A DNA stretch of 32,000 nucleotides. Source: Planctomycetales bacterium (GTDB lineage Bacteria; 4484-113; JAFGCY01). Position 1 is the stretch's first letter; every line of letters begins with the position of its first letter. The stretch is taken from the NCBI GenBank assembly GCA_022646745.1, contig CP060262.1, positions 600,001 to 632,000 on the forward strand. Reading direction: 5' to 3'. The notes under the pieces are model-generated. The model saw only the letters and a list, made by a program, of their open reading frames with translations. It was not told the DNA's origin and searched no databases. Below, one piece after another: positions 5,979 through 32,000 of this stretch. The position numbers were made by a program, and so were the translations under genes.

Positions 5979-6419
5979 TCAGGGACGCTCCCTTTCCTCG
6001 ATCGTACCCCGCTCGTCACACCACAAAAGCTTGCGGTCGGTCAGTACGGAGATCTCAAAGCCTTCCCCGTCCTTCGTCACCACGACGCTTCCGACTGTCC
6101 CCATCTTGCCTGGCAGCCGGTCCTGCTCATCCAGCTCGCCGCTGAGAATGTCCTTCTCAAGCAGCTCCTCCAGCGTGGCGTACTTGCCCTCAGTTCGGTG
6201 GTGCCTCAGTTCCGCGGTCTGGATGTCGCCAAGCAGCTCAATGCCCACGCGGTTCTGGCTTTCGTAGCTTTCAGAGACATTGATGCCGGTCATCACGACC
6301 AGGTATCCGATGAAGATGATGGCGGGCAGGATGCAGCAGAAGCGCAGTTTCGGGTCCGTTCCCGGGGGTTTCTTCATCGGTGGCAACTCTGAATTCAGTT
6401 CGGCGTATTGCCTGTCCAT
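5979..6419 (-). CDS. Membrane-anchored pilin-head-like protein (single TM segment, no prepilin cleavage motif)
   Basis: 146 aa. The TM segment LRFCCILPAIIFIGYLVVMTGI is followed by ESQNRVGIELLGDIQTAELRHHRTEGKYATLEELLEKDIL and then beta-type sequence. This has the same layout as the 6492..6923 protein and the four modules of the 8188..9621 protein. AGGAAA lies upstream of the ATG. Confidence 0.65.
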   Translation of the reverse strand: MDRQYAELNSELPPMKKPPGTDPKLRFCCILPAIIFIGYLVVMTGINVSESYESQNRVGIELLGDIQTAELRHHRTEGKYATLEELLEKDILSGELDEQDRLPGKMGTVGSVVVTKDGEGFEISVLTDRKLLWCDERGTIEERERP

Positions 6420-6491
6420 CCGTTTTCCTGGAAGCGTGATTAGCTGCTGGAATCATATCAGCCAGCCATGGCGGTGCATCCTGTGCCAGAC

Positions 6492-6923
6492 CTAGCGGGG
6501 TCGTTCGACATCCAGGAAGCGGCGCGTGTCAGCAGCATCCGTGCTGTATTTCCCGCGCAGGAAGCGCACGGTGATCCTGTAGTCCATCCGGTCCATCGGC
6601 AGTTCGCACTCGGCGCTGATACCCTCCTCCACCTGCGCCTTGCCATCGACTATCGGATAGCTGACCAGCCCGAAGTCCTTCAACTCCTCAAGCGTGCCAT
6701 AGCGGCCATGGGATTCGAAGTAGCCCTCCTCGGCGTACTTCAGGAAGGCTGTGTGCATGTAGGCAGTGTCGCGCAGCGTTGTGTAGCCCTCGCTGCTGAA
6801 CACCTTCACGTAGAGCAGGCCGCCGGCCACTGCCATAATGACGAGCAGGATGCCCACGCGCAGGCCGTAGGGAACAACACGGCGTTCCTCACCGGTGCGG
6901 GGATCGATCACTGTGCCGGACAT
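6492..6923 (-). CDS. Membrane-anchored pilin-head-like protein (paralogue of 5979..6419)
   Basis: I trimmed the start to the ATG at 6923 (MSGTVIDPRTGEERR...) because the track start at 7013 would overlap the pilin gene by 83 nt with low-complexity S/T/R sequence. The TM segment GLRVGILLVIMAVAGGLLYV is followed by LRDTAYMHTAFLKYAEEGYFESHGRYGTLEELKDFGL. Confidence 0.6.
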   Translation of the reverse strand: MSGTVIDPRTGEERRVVPYGLRVGILLVIMAVAGGLLYVKVFSSEGYTTLRDTAYMHTAFLKYAEEGYFESHGRYGTLEELKDFGLVSYPIVDGKAQVEEGISAECELPMDRMDYRITVRFLRGKYSTDAADTRRFLDVERPR

Positions 6924-6930
6924 CGCCGGA

Positions 6931-7998
6931 TCAGAAGGTCTTGTTGAAGTAGACAGCGCCCTCGAAGAGCTGCAGCACGTAGAGCTCGAAGCGGGTGTCG
7001 ATGCCCGCCGCACCCATGTCCGGGATGCCGGTCTGGATGAACTCGGTGCGCTCCGTGGCGTAGCGGTCGGACTGGGCGCTCTCCTGGCTGCCGAAGCCGA
7101 AGATCATGTAGCCCGTCACATTGGTGCCCCACTGGTAGAACTCATTGCGCAGGGTGACCAGGTTGTCCACATCAGGATAGGCGGAAGCGGTGACGATCGG
7201 GATGTAGGCGAAGTCGCCGGGGCTGAAGTAGTCGCCGTCGTCCACGCCCCACTTGCAGTTCTGGCTGAACACCGCCGGGGTGATCGCACCTATCGGCAGC
7301 GCTTCGCTGTCATGACGCAGGACCGTAGTACCGGTGATGCTGTCCGCACCCACGGTGATGCTAGGCCCGGCCGCGCCTGAAGGATCACCCTCAATGCTTG
7401 CCAGCAGGAAGGGGTTGAGTTCAGCGTTGAGGGATACGACATCCTCAAGGTCAATCACATCCGGGGAAGTGGTGAAACCGAATACATTCTGCATCCGGCG
7501 GGTACCGACGCCTGCCGCTCCGCTGAACACATTGACGGGGTACTCGGAAAGGGCATCGTCCACGATCAGGGAGTCGAAGTAGCGCTCGTAGTCCACATTG
7601 CCGGCCACCAGCTGGGTGGCGCGGGCGTTTGCGATCTGCTCATGCACCGGCACCGCGGAGTTGTTGCGGTGGCCGTAGCCGCCGAGGATGCCGTTGGCCA
7701 CGTCCCACTGTGCGGGGTAGTCCAGCGCGCCCTGGGCATACAGCTCGCCGTCACCCAGCGCATGCCATTCCCAGGGGGCCATGATGTCGATCGCGACACC
7801 GGGGTAGTTCCCCTCGTGGTTCTGGGCATAGCTGGCAAGGGCGACTTCAATGTTCGCGCAGTTTCCGCGCACGGCGTTTTCCTTCGCGGTAAGCGAAGCC
7901 TGCCGTACGGTCGGGGCGAGGATGATCACAAGCACGGAGACGATGCCGATAACAACCAGCAGCTCCACGAGTGTAAAGCCCTGCTTTGTGTATCTCAT
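6931..7998 (-). CDS. Type IV pilin / pseudopilin with prepilin-type N-terminal cleavage-methylation motif (355 aa)
   Basis: MRYTKQG|FTLVELLVVIGIVSVLVIILAP has a short leader, Gly at -1, Phe at +1 and Glu at +5. I trimmed the start to the ATG at 7998, which has GAGGGG 5 nt upstream. The track start at 8043 adds 15 non-pilin residues. The upstream intergenic region 8044-8187 is AT-richer than the surroundings. Confidence 0.85.
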   Translation of the reverse strand: MRYTKQGFTLVELLVVIGIVSVLVIILAPTVRQASLTAKENAVRGNCANIEVALASYAQNHEGNYPGVAIDIMAPWEWHALGDGELYAQGALDYPAQWDVANGILGGYGHRNNSAVPVHEQIANARATQLVAGNVDYERYFDSLIVDDALSEYPVNVFSGAAGVGTRRMQNVFGFTTSPDVIDLEDVVSLNAELNPFLLASIEGDPSGAAGPSITVGADSITGTTVLRHDSEALPIGAITPAVFSQNCKWGVDDGDYFSPGDFAYIPIVTASAYPDVDNLVTLRNEFYQWGTNVTGYMIFGFGSQESAQSDRYATERTEFIQTGIPDMGAAGIDTRFELYVLQLFEGAVYFNKTF

Positions 7999-8187
7999 CG
8001 CAACCCCTCGCTGGCGAAACTGAATGTACGTCGCTGCAACCAAGATATATTACACCGTTCCGTAGATTCTATAAACATGGGACATATCCGTGGCATACCG
8101 TCAAATGGTGTGCCCCGTGCCAATAAAGACGCCCTTCCCCGGCTGCGGTTACAGGATTTGCCGGATAGATCCGTTATTTTGCGGCAT

Positions 8188-9621
8188 TCAGCCCTGATCC
8201 GCCTCTTTCAGGGCCTCGCGCAGTTCCCCGGCCTGGTCAATCGTGCGGATCACGTCCCCGGCCTGGCCGGTGAATTCATATGTCTCAGAATCCTCTGCCA
8301 TTTTGAGACTGAGCTGAACGCCGTCCTTCGTACCCTTGTTATCGGATTCCAGCTCATCAAGCTCCAGCAGGCCGTCCTCCTTGAGCTGGCGCAGGCTAGC
8401 GTAGTTCCCGTGGCGGATCAGGTGCGCCTCCTGGGCGTTATGCGCATGGTTCAGTACAGCGGCCACCAGCTCGAGCCTGGCATTGGCCAGCGCCTTGTCC
8501 AGCCCTTCCTCCGGCTCCACCGGGCCTTCCTGGTCGGGCATGAAGCCCTCCATTGCCTTAGGGCCAGGCAGCGGCAGGTAGTTCTCTCCGCCTTCAACCT
8601 CAGGGCTGAAGGCATTGATCTCACCCGCCTGGTCGGTGTACAGCCTTACGCCGCCCAGTTCCGCTATTGCGCTGTAGCCCAGCTTGTCGTCGTCCAGCTT
8701 GAAGCTGAGCACGATGCCTGATGAAGTGGCGGGCAGCTGGCCGCTGAAATCCAGCCGCTCGAAGTATAGTCCGCTTAAGTCCTTCAGCTCGCCGTAGTGC
8801 TGGTAGGCACCCTTGTAACGGGTCTGGGCTGCAACCAGGGCAGCCAATGTATGCTCCACGATGGATTCCACACCTTCTGTGCTGGAATTCATGTAGGGCA
8901 TGATCCGCATCCGCCCGCCGGATTCCTGCACCCAGGCGCAGCTGCCGCCGAAGGCCACCGCGCCGTACCACATATTGCGCTGGGCACTGGACTCCTTGCC
9001 GGCCCGGTGCAGTAGCAGCACGCCCTGCGCCGGGCGGGCCACCTGGTAGCCGAGGCTAGTGTAGATCGGGCGGAACTCCTCCGCCGGCAGGGTGTTGTAG
9101 CGGGTCAGCTCGGCCAGCGATAGGTAGGTCCGGGCCTGCGAATAGGCCGAGTCCTCACTTGTGTTGATTATGTCGAGGATCTCGCGAGCGATCTCATCCA
9201 TTTCCAGCCGGCTGCGGCTGCCGATCTCACCACTGGAATTCACGCTCCAGACGCGGTCCTGCTCCCAGGCCAGCACATCGTATTCGCGGCGGTAGTCATC
9301 CAGCACCTGGAACACCAGCAGGCCGTTTTGCAGCAGCCATTCGCCGTTGGCTTCCATGTTGTAGACCACGCCCTCCTGCTCCAGCACGGCCGGGAACAGG
9401 TTTGCAAGCATCGTGTAGCGTCCCTTCGATTCATTCCACTCCTGCTGGCGCTTGGACAGCTCGCGCAGGAAGAGATGTGCACTCGGGCTGGGCTGTTCGG
9501 AGGCGATGCTCTCCTGTGGCAGCGGCAGCTGCGGCATGTCGGAATCCTGCGCCAGCGCATTGCCTGCCAGAAACAGGCCCGACGTAATAGCAAGCAAGGT
9601 TCTGATGAGGCCAGTCGCCAT
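8188..9621 (-). CDS. Secreted protein composed of four tandem pilin-head-like modules
   Basis: The preferred start at 9621 gives the signal peptide MATGLIRTLLAITSGLFLAGNALAQ. The track start at 9711 would overlap the upstream gene. No clear Shine-Dalgarno is present, so the start is uncertain. Four helices of the type xLxxxxxAQxxYxxxxGxYxxLxxL occur at nt ~9421-9480, ~9090-9150, ~8768-8858 and ~8366-8478, and each is followed by ~80-100 aa of beta-type sequence. Confidence 0.7.
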   Translation of the reverse strand: MATGLIRTLLAITSGLFLAGNALAQDSDMPQLPLPQESIASEQPSPSAHLFLRELSKRQQEWNESKGRYTMLANLFPAVLEQEGVVYNMEANGEWLLQNGLLVFQVLDDYRREYDVLAWEQDRVWSVNSSGEIGSRSRLEMDEIAREILDIINTSEDSAYSQARTYLSLAELTRYNTLPAEEFRPIYTSLGYQVARPAQGVLLLHRAGKESSAQRNMWYGAVAFGGSCAWVQESGGRMRIMPYMNSSTEGVESIVEHTLAALVAAQTRYKGAYQHYGELKDLSGLYFERLDFSGQLPATSSGIVLSFKLDDDKLGYSAIAELGGVRLYTDQAGEINAFSPEVEGGENYLPLPGPKAMEGFMPDQEGPVEPEEGLDKALANARLELVAAVLNHAHNAQEAHLIRHGNYASLRQLKEDGLLELDELESDNKGTKDGVQLSLKMAEDSETYEFTGQAGDVIRTIDQAGELREALKEADQG

Positions 9622-9679
9622 ACTATTCAGACGCCCGGGACCTGCCGGGTGTTGCGCATGGAGCAATGCAGCGGTCGGC

Positions 9680-11593
9680 CTAGACATTTGGATCAAGGTC
9701 CTTAGGGGCAAACTGGTTGTTCTGGAAATACGTGCGGAAGGCGGCCGCCCGGCTGCGGTACTCCCGCTTCAGCTCCGGGTCATCCGTCAGTTCCGTCATG
9801 CGTTCGTACCACTGCGCAAACATCCCGTTGAGCGGGTAGAAGGTCGGCCGCACATGGCTCGGGGTGATCGGTTCCGTGATCGGGATGCGCTCGAGGCCCA
9901 GCTCAAGCCTGCGCAGCTGCTCCGCCGGGTCATCCGCCAGCACGGCCCAGCCGTAGTAGTGGTCGGGGTAGTTATATGGGTCGATTTCAATCGCCTGCTC
10001 GACTTCGCGGCTGGCTGCCGGGCGCGCGGGATTCAGCGTGCCGCGCAGGAACATCGCATTCGCGGCCAGTGGGTTGCAGGCCAGCGCTGCATCGAGGTCC
10101 TCTCGGGCCGCTTCCAGCTCCGCCGGAGGCAGCTGCTGCGGGTCCGGCACGGCGTTCACGCGCAGCGAGGCGCGCTGGTAGCGTGTCATGTGGTTGCGCG
10201 GGTTGTAGCGGATCGCCATGTTAAGCAGGTCGAACTTCACGCGGGCCTGCTCAACATTGCTGACCTGCATGCCGCGCATCTGGTCGAGGATGAATCGCTC
10301 GAAGGTCAGGGATGGAGCCTTGACAAGGCTCAGCAGCACCAGCACTGCACATGCCAGGCCCAGCGGGTCGAGCTTCATGCCTGCCTTTGCCTCATCACTG
10401 GACGGGCGAGCTGCCATTGCGGCATGGCTGCCGATCGCGAGCAGGGCACCGAGGAACACGTTCGTGGCGCTGAAGGTGTAGTCGAAGTCCACGGCAGCAT
10501 GCGCCAGGCTTCCTCCGACTGCCGCGACAATTGCCAGGCACCAGGGCAGCGGCTGGCCACAGCGCAGCACGCGCAGGGCCCACCAGATGAATCCGATGAT
10601 CAATGCAAGCGCCAGCAGCAGACCGGCGACGCCCAGCTCAGCACTGAGCTGCAGCGGCCAGCTGTGCGGGTCCACGCTGTAGTAGATGTAGTCCTTCTGG
10701 TACTGCGGATAGACATAGGCGAAGTTGCCGAGTCCGACACCCTTGAGCGGATGCTCAGCGAACATCTGCCAGGCGCTGTCCCAGAAGCGCAGGCGGCCCT
10801 GGAAGGAATAGCCGGCGAAGTCGGTGACGCGGGACAGCACGCTGCGCACCGGCGGGATGGCCAGCAGGCCGAGGAACATCACAACAAGCGCGCCAGCCCC
10901 GATGCCGAGAGCCCGGCCATAGCCCCTGCGTCCCCCGAGCAGCATTCCAGCTGCGATGAACACGAGTTGCAGCAGCAGGCACAGCCATGCAGCACGTGAA
11001 TATGTCAGCACCAGCACCAGCAGGTTAATGGAGCTGGCAATCAGGCCAAACAGCTGCATCCCCCTTGTGGATGCACGGCTGGCCAGCAGCAGGCCCAGCG
11101 GCCAGCCCAGCAGCAGGAAACCGGCATACGGGTTGTGCAGGCCGAACACGGAAGCCACCTGGTGGTCCGTTCGCCCGCTGCTGATCCACTCAACCAGTCC
11201 AAGCAGCGCGGTTAGCAAAGTGGAACCGCACATCGCAGGCAGCAGCCAGCTGCCCCGCTGCGCTGAATGGCGCAGGGCCGTGTCGGCGATGATCCAGCCG
11301 CAGGGGAAGGCCAGCAGGTAGAGCGAAAGCACCTGGCCCTGGTATACCGAAGGCAGGAACACCAGCAGGATGCATGTCGCCAGCAGGGCCGGCAGCAGCC
11401 AGTTGGGCTTTTCATCCCGCGGGCGCAATAGCAGGCAGAGCGCGGCTGCCAAGGGTAGCAGCAGGTGTGCCACCAGGTAGCCCCAGCCGCTGAAGCCGCC
11501 GGCCAGCAGTGGCAGCACGGCGATTGCGATCAGCCCGAGCGAGACGGCGATGTCAACGCGTCCCGATCCATTGCCAGTGCCGCTGCCATCCAT
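9680..11593 (-). CDS. O-antigen ligase (Wzy_C) family polytopic membrane protein with C-terminal TPR-like region
   Basis: 637 aa with many TM segments. Wzy_C hallmarks are present: LTYSRAAW, GRLRFWDSAWQMFAEHPLKGVGLGNF and DPHSWPLQLSAELGVAG. The C-terminal ~230 aa are helical-repeat-like. The ATG at 11593 shares its A with the TGA of the upstream NuoN-like gene. Confidence 0.85.
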   Translation of the reverse strand: MDGSGTGNGSGRVDIAVSLGLIAIAVLPLLAGGFSGWGYLVAHLLLPLAAALCLLLRPRDEKPNWLLPALLATCILLVFLPSVYQGQVLSLYLLAFPCGWIIADTALRHSAQRGSWLLPAMCGSTLLTALLGLVEWISSGRTDHQVASVFGLHNPYAGFLLLGWPLGLLLASRASTRGMQLFGLIASSINLLVLVLTYSRAAWLCLLLQLVFIAAGMLLGGRRGYGRALGIGAGALVVMFLGLLAIPPVRSVLSRVTDFAGYSFQGRLRFWDSAWQMFAEHPLKGVGLGNFAYVYPQYQKDYIYYSVDPHSWPLQLSAELGVAGLLLALALIIGFIWWALRVLRCGQPLPWCLAIVAAVGGSLAHAAVDFDYTFSATNVFLGALLAIGSHAAMAARPSSDEAKAGMKLDPLGLACAVLVLLSLVKAPSLTFERFILDQMRGMQVSNVEQARVKFDLLNMAIRYNPRNHMTRYQRASLRVNAVPDPQQLPPAELEAAREDLDAALACNPLAANAMFLRGTLNPARPAASREVEQAIEIDPYNYPDHYYGWAVLADDPAEQLRRLELGLERIPITEPITPSHVRPTFYPLNGMFAQWYERMTELTDDPELKREYRSRAAAFRTYFQNNQFAPKDLDPNV

Positions 11594-13221
11594 CAGATCT
11601 GGTAATCCTTCTGCCAGTAGACGAGGAAGTAGGCTTCCTTCACGTAGTCAAACGGCACATTGACGAACACCACGCCCAGGAGCAGGATGAACAGCGCGGG
11701 CACGAGGATCGCAAGCCTGGTGAACAGGATCGGCTCGAACTTACGGTTCTGCTCCAGAGCCGGCGGCAGCACCCACATGCGGTACAGCAGCCGCATGTAG
11801 TAGAACGCGCTCATTGCCGTTGTCAGCAGGGCGAAGATTACAAGCGCAGTGATCATCGCATTGCCGGGCGCGTAGAGCAGCATGCTCTTGAACACGAAGA
11901 ACTTGGCCCAGAAGCCGACGGTCGGCGGCAGGCCGACGAGCGCGATGATGATCACGCTGAAGATCAGCGTCAGCATTGGGTTGCGCCGTACGAGCCCGTT
12001 GTAGCTGTCCATGTGGTCCGTGCCACCGGCACTTTCCACTGCCATCGCGGCGACGAAGATCCCGAGGTTCATGAAGAAGTAGACCAGCACGTAATACAGT
12101 GCCGAGAAGAAGCCCTCTGTCTGCTCCATTTCCGAGGTGGCATGCGCCGCCGCGATCACACCGATCATGATGTAGCCCATGTGGCTGATGCCGGAATAGG
12201 CCATCATGCGCTTGAAGCTTGTCTGTTTCAGCGCCATCACGTTGCCGATCACCATCGAGGCAATCGACATCACCGTCAGGATCGGTATCCAGATCTGCTT
12301 CAGGGAAATGAAGGCGATGAACAGCAGGCGCATCAGCACCGCATAGCCGGCGGTCTTCGGGAAGACGGAGATGAAGGCCGTCACCGGGGTCGGCGCGCCT
12401 TCATAGACATCCGCCACCCAGAGGTGGAAGGGCGCGATGCCCAGCTTGTAGCCGATGGCAACCAGCAGCAGCACGATGGAGAAGATCACCATCGGCATGT
12501 AGGCAAATTTCGGATCGCGCAGGTAGTCCTGGATGTAGTAGAGGTTCGTCTCGTTGGTGGCACCGTAGAGGATGCTCATCGCGAACAGCAGCGCGCCGCT
12601 GGCGGCTGCTCCCGTGATGAAGTACTTCAGGCCGGCTTCCAGGCTGCGCAGGTTCTTCTTGTGGAAGGCCGCCATGATGTAGCCGGTGATCCCACCGAAT
12701 TCGGTCATCACGTAGACCGCCAGCAGGTCGGAGGAACCGACCATCAGGTCATAGGCGATCGTACCGGCCAGCATCAGGATGATGAACTCCACGCGGTACT
12801 TCTTCAGCGGCTTGTAGCCGATCAGCGCGAGGATGATCATGATGTCGCCCCAGTCCATCAGCTGCTTGAACATCAGGGCGTAGGGGTCGATCGTTTCCAG
12901 CCCGCCCCACCAGGTACCGAGGCCGTAGCCGAAGTAGCGGCTGGTGTAGTACATCATGTGGATCGTCATCATCAGGTTGCCAAGCAGCGATATGATGGCG
13001 ACCCAGCAGACAACAAGGAAGTTGTCACGCTTGCTGAAGATCTCAATCAGGCAGATGATGCCCAGTCCGACAAGCAGTGAGATTTCAGGGGAGAGCAGGT
13101 AGTAGGAAGTGTGCCGCCAGGCCCATTCGCCGAACTGCTGCACGGGTACGCCCGCAAGGTAGGAAATGCGGCCCCAGATGACGTAGAGCATTTCCAGCAG
13201 CTGGGATGAGACGGGATCCAT
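11593..13221 (-). CDS. nuoN: NADH-quinone oxidoreductase subunit N-type (ND2/NuoN family) proton-pumping membrane subunit
   Basis: 542 aa and polytopic. It carries the NuoN/ND2 signature LGIAPFHLWVADVYEGAPTPVTAFISVFPKTAGYAVLMRLL, plus LKYFITGAAASGALLF and SGISHMGYIMIG. No other nuo genes flank it. The start could instead be the ATG 30 nt downstream (Met11). Confidence 0.8.
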   Translation of the reverse strand: MDPVSSQLLEMLYVIWGRISYLAGVPVQQFGEWAWRHTSYYLLSPEISLLVGLGIICLIEIFSKRDNFLVVCWVAIISLLGNLMMTIHMMYYTSRYFGYGLGTWWGGLETIDPYALMFKQLMDWGDIMIILALIGYKPLKKYRVEFIILMLAGTIAYDLMVGSSDLLAVYVMTEFGGITGYIMAAFHKKNLRSLEAGLKYFITGAAASGALLFAMSILYGATNETNLYYIQDYLRDPKFAYMPMVIFSIVLLLVAIGYKLGIAPFHLWVADVYEGAPTPVTAFISVFPKTAGYAVLMRLLFIAFISLKQIWIPILTVMSIASMVIGNVMALKQTSFKRMMAYSGISHMGYIMIGVIAAAHATSEMEQTEGFFSALYYVLVYFFMNLGIFVAAMAVESAGGTDHMDSYNGLVRRNPMLTLIFSVIIIALVGLPPTVGFWAKFFVFKSMLLYAPGNAMITALVIFALLTTAMSAFYYMRLLYRMWVLPPALEQNRKFEPILFTRLAILVPALFILLLGVVFVNVPFDYVKEAYFLVYWQKDYQI

Positions 13222-13242
13222 GCGGACTCTATATATAGCATA

Positions 13243-13267
13243 AAGCGGAGGGCAATGCCCTCCGCTT
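13243..13267 (-). terminator. Stem-loop terminator candidate downstream of the PilP-like gene
   Basis: aagcggaggg (13243-13252) pairs perfectly with ccctccgctt (13258-13267), and c13253 pairs with g13257. On the minus strand the stem is followed by TTATGCTATAT, which is only a moderate U-tract. Confidence 0.5.
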
Positions 13268-13291
13268 CAATGTTGATCTGAACTGTTGGAT

Positions 13292-14350: not shown

Positions 14351-14362
14351 CTCACTGTCCTG

Positions 14363-15199
14363 TTAGCAGGAGTAAGCTCCCGGCGGATCCGGCGGAGCGT
14401 CTCCGCTGGCGGCCTTCTCGGGGTTGATGAAGTACACGGTCATGCGGATCGTCCAGGTCTGTCCGCGACGGATGAAGCTGCTGTTGTCCGGGTCGCCATC
14501 AGTCTTGATGCAGTGGATCGTGAACAGCTTGTCAGTCATCTTGCGGCTGGTACCCTGCTGGATGCTGCGCACGAAACGCATCACATCTTCATAGGTGCCA
14601 CCGAACTTCTCCAGCGTGATGTTGTACGGCGTAAGGAAACTGGACTGGCCAGTCTTCAGCACCTCAGTGACCGGGTTACCGTTGCTCTCCGGATAGTAGA
14701 TGATCGGGAAGATATCCGGACCGTTCTCGATGAGGTTTCCGCGGGGAATTGTCTCGAACGGAGTCATCGCCATGTTGATGCTGTACTCGTACTGGTCAAC
14801 GAGGATCTTGGATTCACCCGTGATCTGCAGGTAACCGGACTGCAGCACCAGCGGTGAGAAGGTGTCCTCCCAGAAGGGGATCACATCATCCTGGTTCTGC
14901 AGGAACAGGTAGTCCAGCGTGCCGAGCTTCTGGTTGAGGGCCAGCTTGACGCGCTTGGCGGTCTCCAGCTTGGCACCCTTCTTGCGATAGGTGTCAATCT
15001 GGGTCTGCAGGTTGTTCTTCTTGCCCTCGAGGCCGGCGATCTCGTTGGTCAGCTTGTTCTTGTGGCTGTTCACGAAGACCGCGGCGACGATGATGAGCAC
15101 GAGGAACACCACGCCAAGGACCTGCGGGGTCAACAGCGGCTGCTTCGGTGCATTCTGCTCAGGCGGCGGAGCCGCTCCTCTTCTAGGTGCTGACGACAT
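14363..15199 (-). CDS. PilO-like pilus assembly protein (TM segment + coiled coil + C-terminal globular domain)
   Basis: 278 aa. TM segment LLTPQVLGVVFLVLIIVAAVFV, then the coiled coil KLTNEIAGLEGKKNNLQTQIDTYRKKGAKLETAKRVKLALNQKL, then an alpha/beta region. AGAGGTGA lies 7 nt upstream of the ATG. The gene overlaps the PilM-N stop by 17 nt. The call is by architecture and gene order. Confidence 0.55.
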   Translation of the reverse strand: MSSAPRRGAAPPPEQNAPKQPLLTPQVLGVVFLVLIIVAAVFVNSHKNKLTNEIAGLEGKKNNLQTQIDTYRKKGAKLETAKRVKLALNQKLGTLDYLFLQNQDDVIPFWEDTFSPLVLQSGYLQITGESKILVDQYEYSINMAMTPFETIPRGNLIENGPDIFPIIYYPESNGNPVTEVLKTGQSSFLTPYNITLEKFGGTYEDVMRFVRSIQQGTSRKMTDKLFTIHCIKTDGDPDNSSFIRRGQTWTIRMTVYFINPEKAASGDAPPDPPGAYSC

Positions 15200-17204: not shown

Positions 17205-17217
17205 TCGGTTTCAGGTT

Positions 17218-19989
<2,772 letters not shown>

Positions 19990-26200: not shown

Positions 26201-29200
26201 CTGGCGTCGTTGGAGCGCATCTGCACCGTGGTGCTGACCGCGCCGCCGCCGGTCGTCAGGCTGTCGAGGTTCACGATCGGGGCCGCCGCGTCGACGGTCT
26301 CCATCGGGATCACGCTGTCCAGCACGTGGTTGCCGGTGCCGTTGTACTTCGGACGGGTCACGACCCAGTAGTAGCCGTAGCCGTCACGGCCGCCGTCCAC
26401 GGAGGCGCTGGCGGTGAAGCCGAGGCGGCTGTCACCGAGCTCACGCAGGGTGATGCTGGCGTTCATCTCCGGCGGGATCGCGGTGCCGGTGCTGCTGGAG
26501 GACTCATCGTCCTTCACGAGCTTGCTGAACACGGTGTCCGTTGCGCCGCCGTTCTCGGTGACTCGCAGGCGCAGCCAGTACTCGGTGTTGTTCGGCAGGC
26601 CGCTCGGGTCGAAGAAGGTGTTCCACTCGGGGCTGCTGCTGCTGCCGGCCACGACCAGCAGGGTGCCGGGCACGAGCTCTGCGGCTGAATAGTCGAATCC
26701 CGGGGGAGTGACGCGGGACGGACGCGGCGGGCTGCCGAGGCCGGGGAAGGTGGCGATCGGTCCGGCGCCGTCGGGACCCTGGTAGGGGCCGCCGACACCG
26801 TTGCCAAGCGTCGCGTCAAGCACGCGCAGTTCCCAGTTGTAGTTCAGGTCGCCACCGGCGGCACTCATCTCGACCTCGACACTGGTGTCGTTGTCGAACA
26901 CGGAGACCTCATGGCTGGCAAGCTGGGCCTGGAAGCCGGCGGCGGTCTCGATCGGGGAGATCACCGCGCTGTCGAAGGCGTAGCCGCCGGTGGGCACCGG
27001 CGGATAGCCGCCGCCGTAGTCCACCGGGAAGGTGCCACCATCAGACGGCGTGGTCTGCACGCGGCCGCCGGCATAGATGTTGCCGGGCAGCGCGGGCGTG
27101 CCGCTCGCGATCGGCAGGCCGCTGGAGTCAACGAAGGTCCGCAGGTCATACATGTGCAGCGTGACCGTGTTGCCCTCCGGGTTGACGCGGATCTGGATCG
27201 GGTTGTTGATCAGCTGGCCCGGCTGCTCCGTCGGCCAGGTGCCGTCGAAGTCATCCGGGTCGTCATCAGGGCCGAGGGTGTCGCGGTACTCCCAGTCGAA
27301 CAGCAGGTAGCTGCCGCCGCCGGTGGTGTCCGCGCCGCCGTAGCTCGAGTAGATGTCATAAGTGTCGCCACCGGTGCGCACCGGCAGGATGTTCACCGCG
27401 AACGGGATCGCGGCCTCGGTGTTGTACTGCAGGAAGACCTTGGTGATGTCATCCGCACGCAGCTCCGGGTCCTCCGGCTCGTTGGCGGCGTCATCCCAGC
27501 GGTAGGCCAGGATGCGGCCGGTGGCGTAGGGGTCGCCCTCGCCGGTCCAGGCCCAGCCGGGCCAGTCAGCCGGAGCCACGCCGGTATCCCAGGCGTTGCC
27601 CTCGTTCGGGCGCCAGTTGCCATCGTCCGTCACCGCACCACCGAGCGGGTACGGGACCTGCTGGTAGCTGAAGTTGCGGCCGAGGCTGCCGACGCCGCCC
27701 AGCGGGGCCAGCAAGCTGGCGAAGGCCGGGTTGTTGGTGAAGTCAGGTCCAAGCACATCCAGGTTGTTGAAGTTGTCATAGGCCTGGATCGTGACGTTGC
27801 CGGTCATGCCGGGGAACACCGGGCTGACTGAGCGGATCTGCTGCGCGGTGAGCGGGATCTGCACGGTGTCGGGGCTCAGCGAACCGGCGTCATACGGGCC
27901 GCCCGCGGAGGGGAACACGCCGGTGCGGTTGGCATGGTTGAAGTACAGCATGTACAGCACAACGTCCTGCGCCGGGTCATCGGCCGTACCGAGGTTGCCG
28001 TCAGGGCCGGTCACGTTGTCGAAGTACCAGCTGACGGGCACCACATCACTGAAGGTGGCGTAGTAGCTCACGATGCCATTCGGGTTGACGGTGTCGTCAC
28101 GGTAGTCCGACGGCGGGTCGGACATCAGGCTGACGCTCATGCTGCTGAACTCGTAGAGCGGGACCTGCAGCAGGTCGGCCGCGCTGTCGAAGGTGCCCGG
28201 GTTGAGCAGGTTGGCAGCGGTGAACACGCCGGGGCCGTGCGGGGTGACGACCGGGTTGGCATTGTTGGTGTTGGCCAGCGTGGCGAAGTCGAAGCCGTCC
28301 GGCGGGTTGTTGTTCGGGCCGAAGTCGAAGCCGCCGCCGAAGATGCCGAAGATGCGCTCGATGAAGAAGAACGCGCCGCCGCCGAACAGGTTGCCGATGC
28401 CCGGGCTGGCCGGGTGGGACGCCATGTTCACGCCGTTCCAGTCGTAGGTGTAGTCATCGGCGGTGAACGGCGTACCGTTGCGGTAGAGCACGATCGAGAG
28501 GCAGCTGTCCAGGCTGAACTCGGGGTTCAGCGCCGGGTAGCCGGCGAAGTTCGTGAAGGCCTCGTCGCTGGTCGGGAACTGGTGGCCGAAGGCGCCGACG
28601 TTGTAGGGGTTGGCCTCACTGTCGCGGTGCGGCACCAGCAGGCCGCCGCCGGTCGGGTCGTAGCGCGGGTCGTCATTGGGTGTCATGTGGTCGGACGCGC
28701 CACTGCGGCCGGTGCGGTCAACCGCCGGCAGGGTGATCTTGCGGAAGTTGGTGCTCGGCAGGTGCTCGCGGATGTAGGCGTACATCTCCTCCGCGCGGTC
28801 GCGGTAGTCCTCGAGCGAGAAGCCGCCGGCGGTGGCGGTGACGTCGTAACGCAGGTCGTTGACATTGTCAGTGTCGCGCATGTCGTCCGGCACGGTGCGG
28901 CGCACCTGGCCGAAGAAGAACGGGTCACCGGCCTCGTAGGCGTTCACCAGGTCGGCATCCGGGCCGACGTCGGTGATGTAGGTGCCGATCACGTTGGTGT
29001 CATAGCTGTGGATCGTCAGGTAGTCCTTCAACCTGTTGAACTTGGCGCGGGTCATGCCGGGCACGTTGAGCAGCTGGTCCAGGCTCGAAAGCGCGAAGGG
29101 CTGCGGCAGCGGCATGTCGTCCTCGTCGCTGGCAGCGAAGTCCCAGAAGATGCTGCCGACGGTGCCGCCCGCGAGATTGATGCCGAGCGCGGTCAGCGGC

Positions 29201-30780
29201 GGGGTGACGTTGGCGACGTCATAGCGGTAGCCGGCGGCGCCGATGGTCGGGTCGATGTTGGGCTCGACGCTGCCATCAGCGTAGCCCGGGTCGATTGCGT
29301 TGAGCGTGTCCTGGCTCGGGTTGAGGTACTCGAGGATGTTGAGTGCCAGCTCCAGGTCGACGCCCGGCAGGCTGGTCAGCATCTCGACACTGTGGCGCGC
29401 GGCCTCGTTGCCCTGGGAGATGCCGTCGCCATCGGTGTCGCCAAGGTAGAAGTGCTGCACGTTCTCGCCCAGGTCAGGCCAGGAATAGCCGTCCGGGGTC
29501 GGGTCAGGGATGCCGGTGGACGGATCAAGCGTACCGAAGTCGATATCGCCGTCATTGGACAGCGTGCCGGCCGGGATGTTCCAGTTCCAGCGCTGGTTGG
29601 TCAGGCGATCCGGGAACAGCGGGTTGTCAATCCACTTGAAGCCGAGCTCGTTGAGCTGCTCGTTGTAGTTGAAGTCGTTGGTTGCCAGGCCCTCGAGGTT
29701 GTAGTCGACGTCAGCGGCCTCCGGCATCAGCACGCGCACCTTCTTGGCGAAGATGTTCAGGTTGATGCGGCCGGCCTCATCGGTCACGTCGGCATAGCTC
29801 TTGAGCAGGTCAGTCGGCACGGGGCCGCGGTCGAGGTCGGTGAACACGCTCTCGTAGATCGCGATGCGCGAGTTGAGCATGTAGTCACGGATGAGGTTTC
29901 CGTTGTCAAGGCTGCGCTCGACGGCGCTTCCGGCCCCGTTCAGACGGGGCTCGTCAGCATTCGGGAAGCCTCCGTTGCCATGCAGCTGGCCTTCCTTGCC
30001 ATCAAACGGATCGCTGCCGGCATCGTTCAGGTCATAGCCGTCGTCAATACCGTCGGCATCGTCATCAACCGCCACCGCGAGGAAGGGATTGAACAGCCAG
30101 ATGGTCTCACCCGTGTTCGGGCTGGTGCCGTTGTAGCGGTTCGTCGAGGACAGCAGCGAGGGCTGGCCGAGGTAGGTCGGCGAATGCATCTGGCTGAAGC
30201 TGAAGTCGAACTCATAGTTGCGGGGGTTGTCATAGACATCCGTCGGCAGCACGGAACGGTCACCACGGGGACTGGTCCAGTAGTCATCACCCGTTCCGAG
30301 GATGTCATCGAGGCCCGCGGCGCCGACGACACCGCTGTCCGGCACCTGGTCACGGCGGAAGCCGCTGACCGGGTCGAGCACGACGATCGCCGTGGCCGGC
30401 TGGTTGGCCGAGCTGTAGTAGTCCGGCAGGGACTTCTGCTGCACCACGAGTGAGATGGCGTCGTTGAGCGCCTTCTGGCTCGCAAGGTCCAGCTTATGTC
30501 CCTTGATCGCCTCGGCGGTGCTGACCGCTTCCGTGTTGAGGCTGGTCAGGACCAGCGTCACCAGCGGGAGCAGGAGCGCCACGAAGATGATCACGGCCAG
30601 CAGCACGACGCCCCGGTGGCCGCGCTTCACAGCGCGTCCGCGGAGCTGCCCACAAGGGGCGTGCTGAGGGGTGTTTCCGCCATTGGATATTCCAGTCATA
30701 TCAGTTCCAGGGGTGAGGTCAGCCGTGGAAGCACTGCCGCTTTCCGGGGACCCACCAACGAGATTTGTGTAAGTGCGCAT
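20257..30780 (-). CDS. Giant (3,507 aa) GspK/PilX-like minor pseudopilin-type protein carrying PKD-like, IPT/TIG-like and Asp-rich Ca-loop-like modules; candidate pilus tip adhesin
   Basis: A single open frame with GAGG just upstream of the ATG. Hydrophobic N-terminal segment RGVVLLAVIIFVALLLPLVTLV (nt 30541-30612). GspK-type motifs: DEAGRINLNIF (nt 29749-29781), LTSLPGVDLELALNILEYL (29323-29379), SLDQLLNVPGMTRAKFNRLKDYLT (29014-29085) and GRVNINTASEEVLTALF (21628-21678). IPT-like region IDPAIEPDVAANGQAIVIRGFNFDP...FITVQTPGG (~25570-25870). PKD-like regions DFQGDGKIDYS...YNATLTVKDLVSGR (~25290-25565) and three more at ~22040-22950 (e.g. YDGDAVYDD...PGTYSVEVRSTDDSGN). Confidence 0.85.
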   Translation of the reverse strand: MRTYTNLVGGSPESGSASTADLTPGTDMTGISNGGNTPQHAPCGQLRGRAVKRGHRGVVLLAVIIFVALLLPLVTLVLTSLNTEAVSTAEAIKGHKLDLASQKALNDAISLVVQQKSLPDYYSSANQPATAIVVLDPVSGFRRDQVPDSGVVGAAGLDDILGTGDDYWTSPRGDRSVLPTDVYDNPRNYEFDFSFSQMHSPTYLGQPSLLSSTNRYNGTSPNTGETIWLFNPFLAVAVDDDADGIDDGYDLNDAGSDPFDGKEGQLHGNGGFPNADEPRLNGAGSAVERSLDNGNLIRDYMLNSRIAIYESVFTDLDRGPVPTDLLKSYADVTDEAGRINLNIFAKKVRVLMPEAADVDYNLEGLATNDFNYNEQLNELGFKWIDNPLFPDRLTNQRWNWNIPAGTLSNDGDIDFGTLDPSTGIPDPTPDGYSWPDLGENVQHFYLGDTDGDGISQGNEAARHSVEMLTSLPGVDLELALNILEYLNPSQDTLNAIDPGYADGSVEPNIDPTIGAAGYRYDVANVTPPLTALGINLAGGTVGSIFWDFAASDEDDMPLPQPFALSSLDQLLNVPGMTRAKFNRLKDYLTIHSYDTNVIGTYITDVGPDADLVNAYEAGDPFFFGQVRRTVPDDMRDTDNVNDLRYDVTATAGGFSLEDYRDRAEEMYAYIREHLPSTNFRKITLPAVDRTGRSGASDHMTPNDDPRYDPTGGGLLVPHRDSEANPYNVGAFGHQFPTSDEAFTNFAGYPALNPEFSLDSCLSIVLYRNGTPFTADDYTYDWNGVNMASHPASPGIGNLFGGGAFFFIERIFGIFGGGFDFGPNNNPPDGFDFATLANTNNANPVVTPHGPGVFTAANLLNPGTFDSAADLLQVPLYEFSSMSVSLMSDPPSDYRDDTVNPNGIVSYYATFSDVVPVSWYFDNVTGPDGNLGTADDPAQDVVLYMLYFNHANRTGVFPSAGGPYDAGSLSPDTVQIPLTAQQIRSVSPVFPGMTGNVTIQAYDNFNNLDVLGPDFTNNPAFASLLAPLGGVGSLGRNFSYQQVPYPLGGAVTDDGNWRPNEGNAWDTGVAPADWPGWAWTGEGDPYATGRILAYRWDDAANEPEDPELRADDITKVFLQYNTEAAIPFAVNILPVRTGGDTYDIYSSYGGADTTGGGSYLLFDWEYRDTLGPDDDPDDFDGTWPTEQPGQLINNPIQIRVNPEGNTVTLHMYDLRTFVDSSGLPIASGTPALPGNIYAGGRVQTTPSDGGTFPVDYGGGYPPVPTGGYAFDSAVISPIETAAGFQAQLASHEVSVFDNDTSVEVEMSAAGGDLNYNWELRVLDATLGNGVGGPYQGPDGAGPIATFPGLGSPPRPSRVTPPGFDYSAAELVPGTLLVVAGSSSSPEWNTFFDPSGLPNNTEYWLRLRVTENGGATDTVFSKLVKDDESSSSTGTAIPPEMNASITLRELGDSRLGFTASASVDGGRDGYGYYWVVTRPKYNGTGNHVLDSVIPMETVDAAAPIVNLDSLTTGGGAVSTTVQMRSNDASPSFEFSQLDNYDNETGAAGADGIPDAQGVYFVHCFVLDRNNLLPSSGQSFIAHDVAQVTLSNLGTGAGGVPDTSGIARTPMAVLAANPPGNASITAGTNNSAAGGANPPYIGSATIDPAIEPDVAANGQAIVIRGFNFDPVASNNTVHFAGGVSATGAGVTAPSGVDILNIGGSPYGQQELTVRVPDGARTGFITVQTPGGTSDRRYIFQTGFNVTFDLIGSLSVNDAAYLQYDLDFQGDGKIDYSYSSLSNPSGGRQLIGSNLGITHDYAGDGIGNYNATLTVKDLVSGRTAVSHQLVMIHDLANVSGTNLVLASGFIGNIFLAGTPSFTDGAASFISAGVLPGDLVTNLNTGATTSVVSVISQNEVGCGSLSAPQWNIGDAYSISRFVDSNGAYGILADIWPDIDTRGASFNPQPGSGLAFRSAVGGINTALARRKWQIDLNGTSGTRGGEQVTSGNSTSNEPSGTVLRDTNNNFAQAGSRGVSVGDLVLNITDGSTANVLDVVSGSELRLSNPGDPSFGTGLVNGTGVNRTGVVDGNSVNQVIDQLAAPYDFVGDINGPAQGGIMVGDTVLQTRDGVQIGTWTVSSTANSPGILDVVNNTFTGTQTATVNAFTDNGGGNWDITLNRFANNSLIGLVLTNVTDGNSTWTITAFNGGNDLTVQLIAPGAGLGVFNIGDLVSINAVPAEWVVDDIWTVNIPANQFRIGYEYEIFTENGFSGNAWADATFADFNTPIEFHIEMNYPFDLSAAGAAASFIEVDWDNDSVVDDIFFVADTTRGDGTQNGIEVENAVITHSFGAGPELNGAGYTVGRYWVNSFAAGQTGSERYGGGAGFALPVVRVGRDDYDTDLGTLNVAQWNNSRDHKVTMTALYQTFATLTDNPLPGSTNNAVRQYETVDQLYVPRGDSQFATSLTNWVSYSAPFVTSNISGITQMLHQSVHGEGSSFNWLSDANANTLWNNDGSESPQDGNPSSTYEYAVNNGFNNWAEVPLNVRGASFPQAAPNVGRPQPNGIFDYYTARRGVYNGWAWSSDVLPSSQRSFSFDSQAVFVGDRNGSSSPERRALGVDIYIDSIVASNSDPIRFTAFPSGGANEFNSYSYRWFVEYDNGGGFQPVDMDNNAGTSPPVSASISGPILVPYEDIQDEAFWVPADSGAGAWRVWCEVSDGSGVVNSAMKTFTVVEPPHSVHVMATPPSGSTGEFIEFWVSADGGTPGYDLEIDYDGDAVYDDVVTVGDGSIHIFGNVYNTPGTYSVEVRSTDDSGNVATDTTVVRVAESIPLWGDLIVNPPSGVAPFIAQVHYAVSGGRRLADGGYNVNLALLDSSGSSQGSVSRTDADSFGGDGPDDPRLPGGNDEPVTFVVPSAGTYTVQMTVSDNSGGVVTVNDTIFADGYMTPIEYGNTAPRVVTDREGRPMHAVRIWTDPHLTLSDDTTQVFGNKPDSEGRGGRLMEADLQVFGDIVGVDTNQAFRSIGNYASKDPLDVPQWQVSYSQGFFGNANIEDYYDTYTEGRVNINTASEEVLTALFRKIITNRAYDYDVVDDIDNNGVNETYHFVRDQVNDSHMTEAAARVLARKVIRYRTLYYDQNKPTPADADGNFGYTQSANAAAASLNLGNFRVDHLPMIGPFDGTNPHQYGIANRDGALGQANTQMLNTWDNMAGSYYNLDNGDAANMFYSPSDMAVVREPLAINIGIDVDGDGVPEPGFNFNVNESKENYAKYLNDVASNSNWENNRYAGGGGFGTWAATGQYPSDNSGNNYSRWSFDARHYFTYSSGNQGLTVGTDGSFSLGALTGVEDVVDGRNKVGVFESNGVTAGTFIPNPPFQNIFDLYKVIDDSAGNQSFPLTGTLDATITLNGNDRSSGLRRYSGPSAFRYEEYWDAGAGEFVVRTNWLDDIAPFITCRSYVYRVDSSAAITASGGTSSALLDTSTLARDRSKTVILDAGPLANNRGVDQLSDLDASRGLISPARSASYKILWFSDNSE

Positions 30781-30860
30781 AAGCCTCGCAGTTTATTATT
30801 CCCAAGAGCCGGGAATCTACACCATATATATAGAAAATTGAGCCTTCACATCCGTGCAGT

Positions 30861-30895
30861 AAAAGTAAAAATGGCCCGGACATTGCCGGGCCATT
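30861..30895 (-). terminator. Rho-independent terminator after the upstream (right-edge) gene
   Basis: aatggcccgg (30870-30879) pairs perfectly with ccgggccatt (30886-30895) around a 6-nt loop. On the minus strand the stem is followed by TTTTACTTTT (30861-30870). Confidence 0.7.
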
Positions 30896-30908
30896 CCTTC
30901 GCTTCAGG

Positions 30909-32000
30909 TCAGTTCGAGACCGGGTTCTTTTCCTGCAGCTTCTCCGAGGGAGTGCTGGCCCGGATGGTCGCACTCGGATCCAACGGATCGCGGAACAGGG
31001 TTCGCACCGCATCGAACACGTTCTGGTCCACGCGGCGCTCCTGGATCCGGCTGTCACGCGGGCTGGTCATCAGCTCGAGGTAGTACGGATAGGCTCCGCT
31101 CTCAACCAGGGGACTGTTGACCGGGACCGTGCGTGTCATCACCAGGTCCTTGTTGACACCGATGTAGTCAGCCTGCTGGTTGTACAGCGGCTGGGTGCGG
31201 GAGGGATCCGAGAAGGGGATCGGGCTGTCGAGGCGGTAGTACACGGTGCTGCCGGTCTTGCCAGCCTTACCACTCTTGTTGCGGCGCTCCTCGATCACAT
31301 CGTTGGGGGTGGACACCACGGTCACACGCACCGCTCGCATGTAGGGCAGCCACCAGCCGGGCACCGGGTCATCCGGGATGCCGTCGCCGTCCGGGATGCC
31401 GTCCGCATCGCCCAGGTCGCCGACGCCGGTCGGGTTCAGGCTGCGCTGGTAGTAACCGGTACCGTGCAGGCGCTCCATGTCGGGACGCAGCTGCGCGATG
31501 CCACCGTCAATCACTTCACCACCGCTGAGGCTGGTGGTCACATAGGCATAGCGGTCGATCGGCGAGTTGTCATTGCGGCCGTCGCCGTTTGAATCGATGT
31601 TGTCGAACACGGCGCTGTTCCAGCCACTGGTCAGCGTGCCGCCGGTCACCTCACCGAGGCCGACACCGGTCGGCGGGGCAACATGGTCACCGGTCAGCTT
31701 CAGCGGGTCGAAGCCCTCGGGATAGCTGTCCTGCAGTTTCCAGCTGAAGCCGCCATACTGGGCACCGGTATCCGGGTCGACGTAGAATCCGTCAGTGCCG
31801 TTGAAGGCCACGTCGATCTGGCGCATCTCCCAGTGGTCCACCAGGGGCTCCATGCCGACCATCGAATTGTCACGCTCATCATTGGCGGCAATCCAGTTGA
31901 TGCTGCCGTCAAGCAGGCTCTGGTAACAGATCTCGACGTTGCCGCCATTCACGCGGGAAAGGTAGACCGGCACCTCATGCAGGTACTCGTACTTCACACG
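30909..32000 (-). CDS. C-terminal part of a secreted Asp-loop-rich protein, possibly a GspJ/PilW-class minor pseudopilin (N-terminus outside the window)
   Basis: The frame stays open to position 32000; the track start at 31997 is just the first in-window GTG. Ca-loop-like motifs DNIDSNGDGRNDNSPID and GDADGIPDGDGIPDD are present. The block LPYMRAVRVTVVS resembles the conserved strand of GspJ/PilW-type proteins. The gene sits immediately upstream of the GspK-like gene, as gspJ does. The functional call is weak. Confidence 0.6.
   Translation of the reverse strand, partial: RVKYEYLHEVPVYLSRVNGGNVEICYQSLLDGSINWIAANDERDNSMVGMEPLVDHWEMRQIDVAFNGTDGFYVDPDTGAQYGGFSWKLQDSYPEGFDPLKLTGDHVAPPTGVGLGEVTGGTLTSGWNSAVFDNIDSNGDGRNDNSPIDRYAYVTTSLSGGEVIDGGIAQLRPDMERLHGTGYYQRSLNPTGVGDLGDADGIPDGDGIPDDPVPGWWLPYMRAVRVTVVSTPNDVIEERRNKSGKAGKTGSTVYYRLDSPIPFSDPSRTQPLYNQQADYIGVNKDLVMTRTVPVNSPLVESGAYPYYLELMTSPRDSRIQERRVDQNVFDAVRTLFRDPLDPSATIRASTPSEKLQEKNPVSN

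Follow-up and report, generated by a model that had tools for sequence, protein, structure and literature searches.

Structural genes of a probable type IVa-class pilus with a giant putative tip pseudopilin, from an uncultured bacterial lineage

Genes and layout of the locus

The window analysed here is a 32,000-nucleotide stretch of DNA (positions 600,001 to 632,000 of contig CP060262.1, GenBank assembly GCA_022646745.1, labelled Planctomycetales bacterium), most of which is occupied by a locus that probably encodes the structural part of a type IVa-class pilus (T4aP) machine with a giant tip pseudopilin, from an uncultured lineage. Twelve genes, all on the minus strand, form a continuous block from 32000 down to 5979, as judged from the listing of open reading frames (ORFs) and from composition. 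A preliminary description had seen in them a divergent filament system around a giant tip protein; the genes it named are in the ORF listing where it placed them, on the minus strand, and its secretin, PilM-PilN fusion, prepilin, NuoN-type subunit and Wzy_C protein were recovered in searches with hidden Markov models (HMMs). Scans of the window proteins with Pfam and NCBIfam models also agree with it that the 32 kb contain no gene for a PilB or PilT ATPase, a PilC platform or a PilD peptidase.

The block begins at the window end with a pilin gene (30909-32000, minus strand) whose reading frame runs past that end, with the N-terminus beyond it and the C-terminal ~60% (at least 363 of ~600 aa) inside. 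Full-length homologues of 604-634 aa (50-54% identity), from one relative (L002) and ten metagenomic loci, start with the classical prepilin motif (RGFTLVE; G↓FTL(V/I)E) and match N_methyl, and their N-termini match the models for Verru_Chthon cassette protein C, HpsC and GspJ. Because these homologues carry the prepilin motif and N_methyl and have GspJ-like N-termini, the window-end gene is assigned to the pilin row as a GspJ/PilW-type member, and its first label, a probable minor pseudopilin, was right. A terminator-like hairpin lies 3' of it (30867-30898, minus strand; 13-bp stem, then a T-run), followed by the giant gene (20257-30780, minus strand), which encodes 3,507 aa (3,480 aa from Met28) and which we read as a PilK/GspK-like tip pseudopilin from its position, its N-terminus and weak motifs.

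An intrinsic-terminator-like hairpin (20183-20213; 13-bp stem with eight GC pairs and a TTTTTT tail) and a sigma-70-like promoter (20105-20133; TTGACA-17-TAAAAT, 11 of 12 matches), both on the minus strand, separate the giant gene from that of the secretin (17218-20097, minus strand; 959-aa ORF). Their placement fits a secretin start at Met37 (19989; 923 aa), the likely one, and 923 aa is also the length at which the gene is called in the closest strain (L001). The secretin, listed here as a PilQ-type outer-membrane channel, matches PF00263 (3.5e-28, 98.8 bits), its Secretin_N match being stretched over residues 554-724 by an insert. Next comes the PilM-PilN fusion (15183-17117, minus strand), which carries PilM_2 (PF11104; residues 16-364, 1.5e-33) and PilN (PF05137; residues 466-524, 1.5e-8, 35 bits against a cutoff of 22.8) in one polypeptide of 644 aa, arranged as an actin-like cytoplasmic domain, a transmembrane (TM) segment, a coiled coil and the PilN domain, and which exceeds the TIGR01175 cutoff (157.9 bits against 133). 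About 70 of 80 homologues span 611-732 aa, among them all that score above 300 bits save truncated entries, so the fusion is conserved; a literature search on PilM-PilN fusions gave nothing relevant. Long Gly-rich low-complexity inserts interrupt a Secretin_N domain of the secretin and the PilN region of the fusion (GGAGGAGGGGGSGGGGSSG).

The following gene encodes a 278-aa bitopic protein (14363-15199, minus strand) of a family with a TM helix, a coiled coil and an alpha/beta domain, whose position after PilMN is conserved. The window protein itself has no family match; the best PDB match to the family profile is M. xanthus PilO (E=0.089) and then PilN (0.88), three of 11 members match Pfam T2SSM (best 1.9e-4, none shown at the Pfam gathering score), and hhalign aligns the family to the PilN part of the fusion with 97% probability, over the TM segment and coiled coil only. 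In a distant clade (L022-L033) the PilO-like proteins end in Gly-rich C-terminal tails. Beyond it lies the gene for a 352-aa lipoprotein (13292-14350, minus strand), PilP-like by position only, with a lipobox (LLAGSC), a linker of acidic (A/E)ENPC repeats, and a conserved, beta-rich C-terminal domain. Members of its family have a lipoprotein or TM N-terminus and a conserved GRxDPL...IPxEL(R/K)PP motif that precedes the beta-rich domain. At residues ~80-165 the window protein has about ten acidic repeats ending in ENPC, with regularly spaced cysteines; its relatives have acidic linkers without the cysteines.

The preliminary description considered the run from secretin to PilP-like gene separately promoted and terminated, of which the first half stands. 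The other end has no more than a hairpin that lacks a U-tract (13243-13270, minus strand), read from the sequence and not called by the terminator scan, and a separate operon end is accordingly not shown. The next two genes encode a stand-alone NuoN-like, antiporter-type membrane subunit of 542 aa (11593-13221, minus strand) and a 637-aa Wzy_C membrane protein with a TPR-like C-terminal region (9680-11593, minus strand). They are transcribed in that order, the stop of one overlapping the start of the other at 11593, and the end of the Wzy_C gene overlaps the ORF that follows. Given the overlapping gene ends and the hairpin without a U-tract, the assembly operon probably continues into the NuoN-like and Wzy_C genes.

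Conservation and class of the machine

Conservation was followed with an exact look-up of the NuoN-like protein, a genome scan with an alignment of PilMN homologues, and tblastn with ORF mapping. The PilMN scan gave 31 loci, to which a metagenome scan with the giant N-terminus added 18, for a total of about 50. The metagenome-assembled genomes (MAGs) behind the 31 are labelled 'bacterium', 'UBP7 HKST-UBA03' or 'Planctomycetales/Planctomycetota bacterium', and one PilMN homologue comes from a 'Candidatus Riflebacteria' MAG; a literature search on pili of Riflebacteria or UBP7 gave nothing relevant. The closest strain, found by the exact look-up, is 98.3% identical and has the same gene order. 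Across the set the common order is a row of H/I/G/G/G/J-like prepilins, the giant K-like protein, secretin, PilMN, PilO-like, PilP-like and NuoN-like genes. In the close clade this takes the form of five or six prepilin genes (GspH-like, PilV/GspI-like, three GspG-like and J-like by N-terminal similarity), a giant ORF of 3,057-3,753 aa, and the secretin. Wherever the loci have enough sequence, the fusion is directly preceded by the secretin (26 of 26), which departs from the canonical pilM-N-O-P-Q order, and the NuoN-like gene is third downstream (20 of 21). A Wzy_C gene follows it in 15 of 18 loci, that is in 15/15 at 50-100% PilMN identity and in 0/3 of the clade at ~33%. Synteny persists down to 33% PilMN identity. 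The secretin-first order and the fusion had both been seen in the window already, and the synteny comparison bears out that they co-occur with the giant K-like gene as a conserved module.

The class of the machine is indicated by a distant sister clade, in which genes for a T2SSF platform, a prepilin peptidase, a methyltransferase and a 374-aa ATPase lie just upstream of the pilin row. The platform scores 238 bits with the Myxococcus PilC model (NF052606), 221 with that of Thermus and 213 with GspF, the peptidase matches A24_N_bact (2e-29) and Peptidase_A24, and the ATPase reaches 417 bits with TIGR01420 (PilT/PilU; cutoff 319). Two of these loci (L053, L058) run unbroken through those genes to the K-like gene, the secretin and the PilM-PilN fusion. 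Since PilT/PilU, PilC and prepilin peptidase are encoded adjacently there, we place the whole locus family in the T4aP class. In close relatives from the window's own clade the 10 kb before the pilin row contain no ATPase, platform or peptidase gene, and none was found downstream; as the sister clade has them adjacent, the absence of ATPases from the window is attributed to operon splitting, which is common in T4aP systems. The 617-629-aa genes that some relatives carry downstream were considered as PilB and rejected, having signal peptides and no Walker motif. The distant-clade methyltransferase is of the SAM type and lies between the pilC or pilT gene and the peptidase gene (L053, 2209-3087; L057, 1252-2598); one copy is fused to a thiamin-pyrophosphokinase-like domain.

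A machine resembling the type II secretion system (T2SS), in which a short periplasmic pseudopilus capped by the giant K-like protein pushes substrates or polysaccharide through the secretin, has to be weighed against this assignment. The order G/H/I/J/K followed by L-like and M-like genes does mirror gsp operons (E. coli gsp order), the pseudopilin N-termini score best against GspG, GspH and GspI, and the J-like N-terminus matches HpsC of a polysaccharide-secretion system. GspL has the architecture of a PilM-PilN-like fusion, and the fusion here shares it, yet what it matches above threshold are PilM_2, PilN and TIGR01175, with no GspL model match in the window. The T2SSM matches would also suit a GspM, but GspM-family matches occur only in the three of 11 relatives, and neither a GspC model match in the window nor a GspC with a PDZ domain was found. 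Further, the sister clade encodes a PilT/PilU retraction-type ATPase and a platform closer to PilC than to GspF, and the periplasm would offer little room for a cap that carries a 2,400-aa module. We consider a T2SS-like function quite unlikely. The comparison of loci and models instead supports a T4aP-class machine of divergent, non-textbook layout. The preliminary view of a divergent filament system around a giant tip protein is thus upheld by a module conserved in about 50 loci; its verdict of neither a textbook T4aP nor a textbook T2SS holds for the layout with its giant tip pseudopilin, and less well for the class, as the family is T4aP-class and the missing ATPases are ordinary.

With the T4aP of Pseudomonas and Myxococcus (PilMNOPQ plus FimU-PilVWX-PilY1) the locus shares secretin, PilM, PilN, G↓FTLxE prepilins, the J-then-K order and, in the sister clade, PilT/PilU, PilC and PilD. 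It differs in its leading secretin gene and its PilM-PilN fusion; moreover, the minor pilins are contiguous with the assembly genes, PilO and PilP go unrecognised by family models, a K-type pilin of 1,600-3,750 aa stands in place of PilY1, all pilins are very large (330-630 aa), and a NuoN-like gene lies inside the operon. Akkermansia Amuc_1098-1102 (PMC5332112) likewise combines a secretin with a long PilM-like protein, and the fusion can be aligned with the Amuc_1101 model over positions 8-480 of 608; scores with the NCBIfam models Amuc_1101_fam and Amuc_1098_fam are far below the cutoffs, however (118 bits against 650, and 42 against 750), and neither a giant K-like gene nor a NuoN-like one has been reported from that cluster.

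The last four genes of the block (5979-9711) are restricted to the closest relatives. The first encodes a secreted repeat-module protein of ~500 aa (p507; 8188-9711, minus strand) with a signal-peptide-like N-terminus, four segments of ~100 aa and no Pfam or NCBIfam match; it was found only in L001, L003 and L007. The last two encode TM-anchored proteins, one of ~143 aa in a 173-aa ORF (p173; 6492-7013, minus strand) and one of 146 aa (p146; 5979-6419, minus strand; also in L001 and L007), again with no match in Pfam or NCBIfam. An HMM built from segment 4 of p507 together with p173 and p146 recovers segment 3 at 3e-7 and segments 1 and 2 faintly, and blastp with p173 finds p507 (1e-4) and p146 (0.003). 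The common pattern, a helix (...G.Y..L.EL...) and then strands, resembles the start of pilin heads, and at the level of this pattern the modules may be called pilin-head-like. Of the four pilin-head modules first proposed for p507, segments 3 and 4 are related and 1 and 2 weakly so; the two small proteins are indeed paralogous to the modules, with the pilin-head fold a matter of pattern in both cases. Between p507 and p173 lies a prepilin gene (6931-8043, minus strand; ATG at 7998) whose 355-aa product begins MRYTKQG↓FTLVE and matches N_methyl (6.7e-7) and the N-termini of ComGC and GspG, as the pilin originally proposed there should. It is a pilin with a GspG/ComGC-like N-terminus and, by its sequence, a large novel head, and its paralogues in relatives (39-49% identity) sit directly upstream of the J-like gene.

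Immediately after the pilus block come ybaB (5610-5945) and recR (4966-5613), as they also do in relatives (L003-L010) down to ~66% PilMN identity; they have no obvious functional link to the locus. According to the Pfam and NCBIfam scans the rest of the window holds a DUF1643 gene, a gene for a 764-aa lipoprotein-like protein without a Pfam match (2564-4858, minus strand), and a gene cut by the window start (1-1069, minus strand) whose outer-membrane-like product has a Cys-rich stretch (SSCDCSESCSDCGCDSCSSCSSCNEC). The closest strain has two extra genes (DUF2442 and HEAT-repeat) between recR and the 764-aa gene (L001 18261-19631, corresponding to 4859-4965 of the window), and its copy of the 764-aa gene is only 85% identical at the DNA level, 86% in protein.

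The NuoN-like subunit and its Wzy_C neighbour

The NuoN-type subunit and Wzy_C/TPR protein of the preliminary description are both real, with the NuoN-like gene transcribed first. The NuoN-like protein matches PF00361 (3.2e-67, 227 bits), its best PDB match is cyanobacterial NdhB (228 bits), and in all lone homologues examined the Glu of TM5 and the Lys of TM7, TM8 and TM12 are invariant. Full-length homologues (45-92% identity) are 523-563 aa long; ordinary NuoN (about 446-504 aa) shows only 32-38% identity to the NuoN-like protein, which is ~50 aa longer. In a neighbour-joining tree, a crude one, midpoint-rooted and without bootstrap, all lone NuoN-like proteins, pilus-linked from both clades as well as linked to Wzy_C only, form one clade apart from the NuoN of nuo operons. 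No nuo gene lies within the 32-kb window or any related locus, whereas an ordinary NuoN taken as control lies in a nuoC-N operon (L040) and another in a nuoL-nuoM-sulfatase-nuoN cluster (L039). The lone subfamily is also found with a Wzy_C gene and a 233-aa protein in loci that have neither pilus nor nuo genes (L034, L035, L038), in a run of PilMN, two genes, NuoN-like, Wzy_C/TPR, glycosyltransferase and aminotransferase (L036), and alone (P0143). The 233-aa protein, of no assigned function, is conserved after the NuoN-like and Wzy_C genes in L034 and L038 (8001-12634), and in L034 (10001-18116) the trio adjoins Rieske, cytochrome b and multihaem cytochrome genes. On the separate clade, the non-nuo context and the intact channel residues together we regard these proteins as a distinct subfamily, which on its gene neighbourhoods is linked genetically with the pilus assembly operon, with Wzy_C, or with the two together.

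It could be objected that this is simply the organism's ordinary complex I NuoN, left beside the pilus genes, perhaps together with Wzy_C, by inherited gene order. Every proton-channel residue is intact, and the TIGR01770 score of 329.5 bits is just below the cutoff of 332.6; yet the lone proteins are longer and branch apart from nuo-operon NuoN. YbaB and RecR are likewise syntenic downstream without a plausible role in a pilus, but their adjacency, like that of Wzy_C, does not extend to 33% PilMN identity, and that of the NuoN-like gene does. Members of the subfamily are also paired with Wzy_C in surroundings that are unrelated and free of nuo genes, and the NuoN-like stop overlaps the Wzy_C start. 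Both points argue against an ordinary NuoN left by inherited order, which we think distinctly improbable as an explanation.

The Wzy_C protein (PF04932, 1.9e-19, 70.4 bits; best PDB match WaaL 7tpg, 0.0017) belongs to the O-antigen-ligase/oligosaccharyltransferase family; the idea of an IctB bicarbonate transporter was rejected, as the score is 59 bits where the cutoff is 366. The family includes the pilin O-oligosaccharyltransferases PglL and TfpO, whose genes often adjoin those of their targets (PMC3643930), and pilin or surface glycosylation would therefore be the most economical role. As with PglL and TfpO/PilO (PMC3643930), a Wzy_C protein here lies inside a pilus locus near pilin genes, a prepilin gene being two genes downstream; unlike them it has a TPR-like C-terminus and is obligately paired with a NuoN-like subunit, and its transfer activity is a prediction. 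A literature search found no paper linking NuoN and Wzy_C.

Stand-alone PF00361 subunits do occur outside complex I, as DabB of the DabAB CO2-uptake complexes and as MrpD. The arrangement here is alike in that a single complex I-type ion-channel subunit partners an unrelated protein, and different in that the partner is Wzy_C and/or the pilus assembly genes and that the subunit is of NuoN/NdhB type. The NuoN-like protein might be functional in ion translocation and have been recruited to machines of the envelope, where it would couple the membrane ion gradient to the pilus alignment complex (PilMN/O/P and secretin) and/or the Wzy_C step. We put this forward as a doubtful proposal; if true, a type IV filament system would have an energy input or gate of a kind not known before, and a complex I module would have found a new use.

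The giant putative tip pseudopilin and a proposed mode of action

The giant gene directly follows the J-type pilin gene, a position kept in all relatives, and its product begins with a pilin-like hydrophobic segment, RG↓VVLLAVIIF, that has Ala at +5 and no Glu, a lack that is a hallmark of PilK/GspK-type apical pilins (PMC13533445). Motifs then follow in GspK order: DEAGRINLN at 334 (matching LRDAQHCFNLN of E. coli GspK), two helix-hairpin-helix-like stretches at 465-488 and 560-594, a motif at residue 3035 (GRVNINTASEEVL, also given as GRVNINTASEEVLTALF) that matches LNVNTAS..VLAAMF of XcpX, and ARKVIRYR at 3094 ahead of the C-terminal strands. Between the two sets of motifs an inserted module of ~2,440 aa is accommodated, with a PKD domain (Pfam) at 2715-2798; self-comparison of the insert gives no internal repeats, and a phmmer search of the middle 2,435 aa against the PDB matched only PKD-like collagenase domains. 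Similarity to GspK at the family level is faint: NF037980 is matched over residues 556-592 (E=4e-5, 23.3 bits; cutoff 130 not reached), PF03934 by a spliced construct (E=0.007, 17.1 bits; cutoff 24.2 not reached), and hhalign with a three-sequence GspK profile gives alignments that fall where collinearity would put them, though with low probability (P=0.005 and 3.7e-4). Position, an N-terminus without Glu+5 and weak collinear motifs nonetheless support the assignment of the giant as a protein that is positioned like, and would work like, a PilK/GspK tip pilin. The GspK label given to it at the outset is kept on these grounds, without a family-level HMM score.

The reading frame itself is real, as first proposed, with homologues of 2,300-3,753 aa in relatives; the K-like protein of the distant clade has 1,590-1,633 aa. 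A phmmer search with the C-terminal 520 aa against 1.84 billion representatives returned 25 matches, the near-full-length ones 2,306-3,747 aa long and the shorter ones probably partial proteins; a homology search with the N-terminal 700 aa returned one fragment only, and an exact look-up of the giant protein, like one of protein P0202, matched no record. In one relative (L002; 339-kb ENA contig, 10001-21206) the giant gene is spread over at least nine consecutive same-strand ORFs, a split that probably reflects assembly frameshift errors rather than decay. The idea that the giant ORF is an assembly artefact or decaying pseudogene in a chance neighbourhood of pilus-like genes, for which those nine or more pieces might be cited, is refuted by intact ORFs of 3,057-3,753 aa from independent assemblies, the same frame in the 98.3%-identical strain, a gene order kept in ~50 loci and a fragmentation pattern in L002 that fits frameshift errors.

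Where PilY1 is absent, PilK homologues such as ComZ and CpaL, which have large insertions ahead of the donor C-terminal strand, act as adhesins at the tip (PMC13533445), and modular pilins are widespread, the most extreme in a 2021 survey having 860 residues with 12 copies of one domain (PMC8179133). The giant resembles the GspK/PilK tip pseudopilins (ComZ, CpaL) in coming last after J, in lacking Glu+5, in flanking a large insertion with pilin-like ends and in having no separate PilY1 beside it (PMC13533445, PMC8179133). What sets it apart is size, with ~2,400 aa in the insert against ~180 aa in GspK and ~600 aa in the whole of CpaL, and a similarity confined to short motifs below family thresholds. 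It is an extreme case of a described modular tip pilin design and no new principle (PMC8179133, PMC13533445).

We hypothesize that the parts work together as follows. The prepilin row lies mostly beyond the window end, and its last member, the GspJ/PilW-like pilin recognised by homology, would form with the giant PilK/GspK-family pseudopilin a complex that primes and caps the filament. Using its N-terminal pilin-like part and C-terminal strands as a carrier, the giant would display its ~2,400-aa non-repetitive module, PKD domain included, at the pilus tip as an adhesin that replaces a PilY1/PilC-type protein. The separately promoted operon would supply the secretin and an alignment subcomplex, of which the PilMN fusion is evident from its domains, the PilO-like protein weakly so, and the PilP-like lipoprotein presumed; it would continue into the NuoN-like subunit, translationally coupled to the Wzy_C enzyme. 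That pair could be an inner-membrane module transferring a lipid-linked glycan onto pilins or cell-surface acceptors, in which the NuoN-like partner would contribute ion coupling or a scaffold. Genes for the platform, the prepilin peptidase and the ATPases of extension and retraction would lie elsewhere in the window's clade, as against adjacently in the sister clade.

Several observations weigh against parts of this scheme. The giant stays below every GspK/T2SSK family threshold (PF03934, NF037980), a PDB search with a C-terminal profile gives chance-level matches and no GspK, and the phmmer search described above retrieves other giant proteins exclusively. A protein of ~370 kDa would, moreover, have to pass the secretin, and such passage is hypothetical. 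NCBIfam scores do not single out one secretin subtype, being alike for SctC, PilQ, MshL and GspD; the PilQ model TIGR02515 gives 79.7 bits, where the cutoff is 284, and does not exceed the other three. Among the alignment proteins, the PilO/GspM-like label first attached to the 278-aa protein is weak; the 352-aa family has no Pfam match, only chance-level matches in a PDB profile search and no detected similarity to PilP, leaving position and topology as the grounds for calling it PilP-like. AlphaFold2 models predicted from single sequences are uninformative, both for the C-terminus of the PilP-like protein (pLDDT 45; beta-rich at low confidence) and for the PilO-like protein (pLDDT 44). No PglL-specific domain was found in the Wzy_C protein, whose sole Pfam match at E<=0.01 is Wzy_C, and the role of the NuoN-like protein may not be glycosylation, since the sister clade carries the NuoN-like gene without Wzy_C.

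The locus represents a conserved pilus architecture in an essentially unstudied uncultured lineage. Its tip pilin of ~3,500 residues would be four times the largest in the 2021 survey, and raises the question of how such a giant cargo is primed and passed through the secretin. The unexpected, new element is the conserved non-nuo NuoN-like subunit in the assembly operon, which defines a NuoN subfamily outside nuo operons, with every channel residue kept and tied to pilus assembly or Wzy_C genes. If these are functional partners, coupling of an ion gradient to a type IV filament machine or to a glycan ligase would be a new mechanism.

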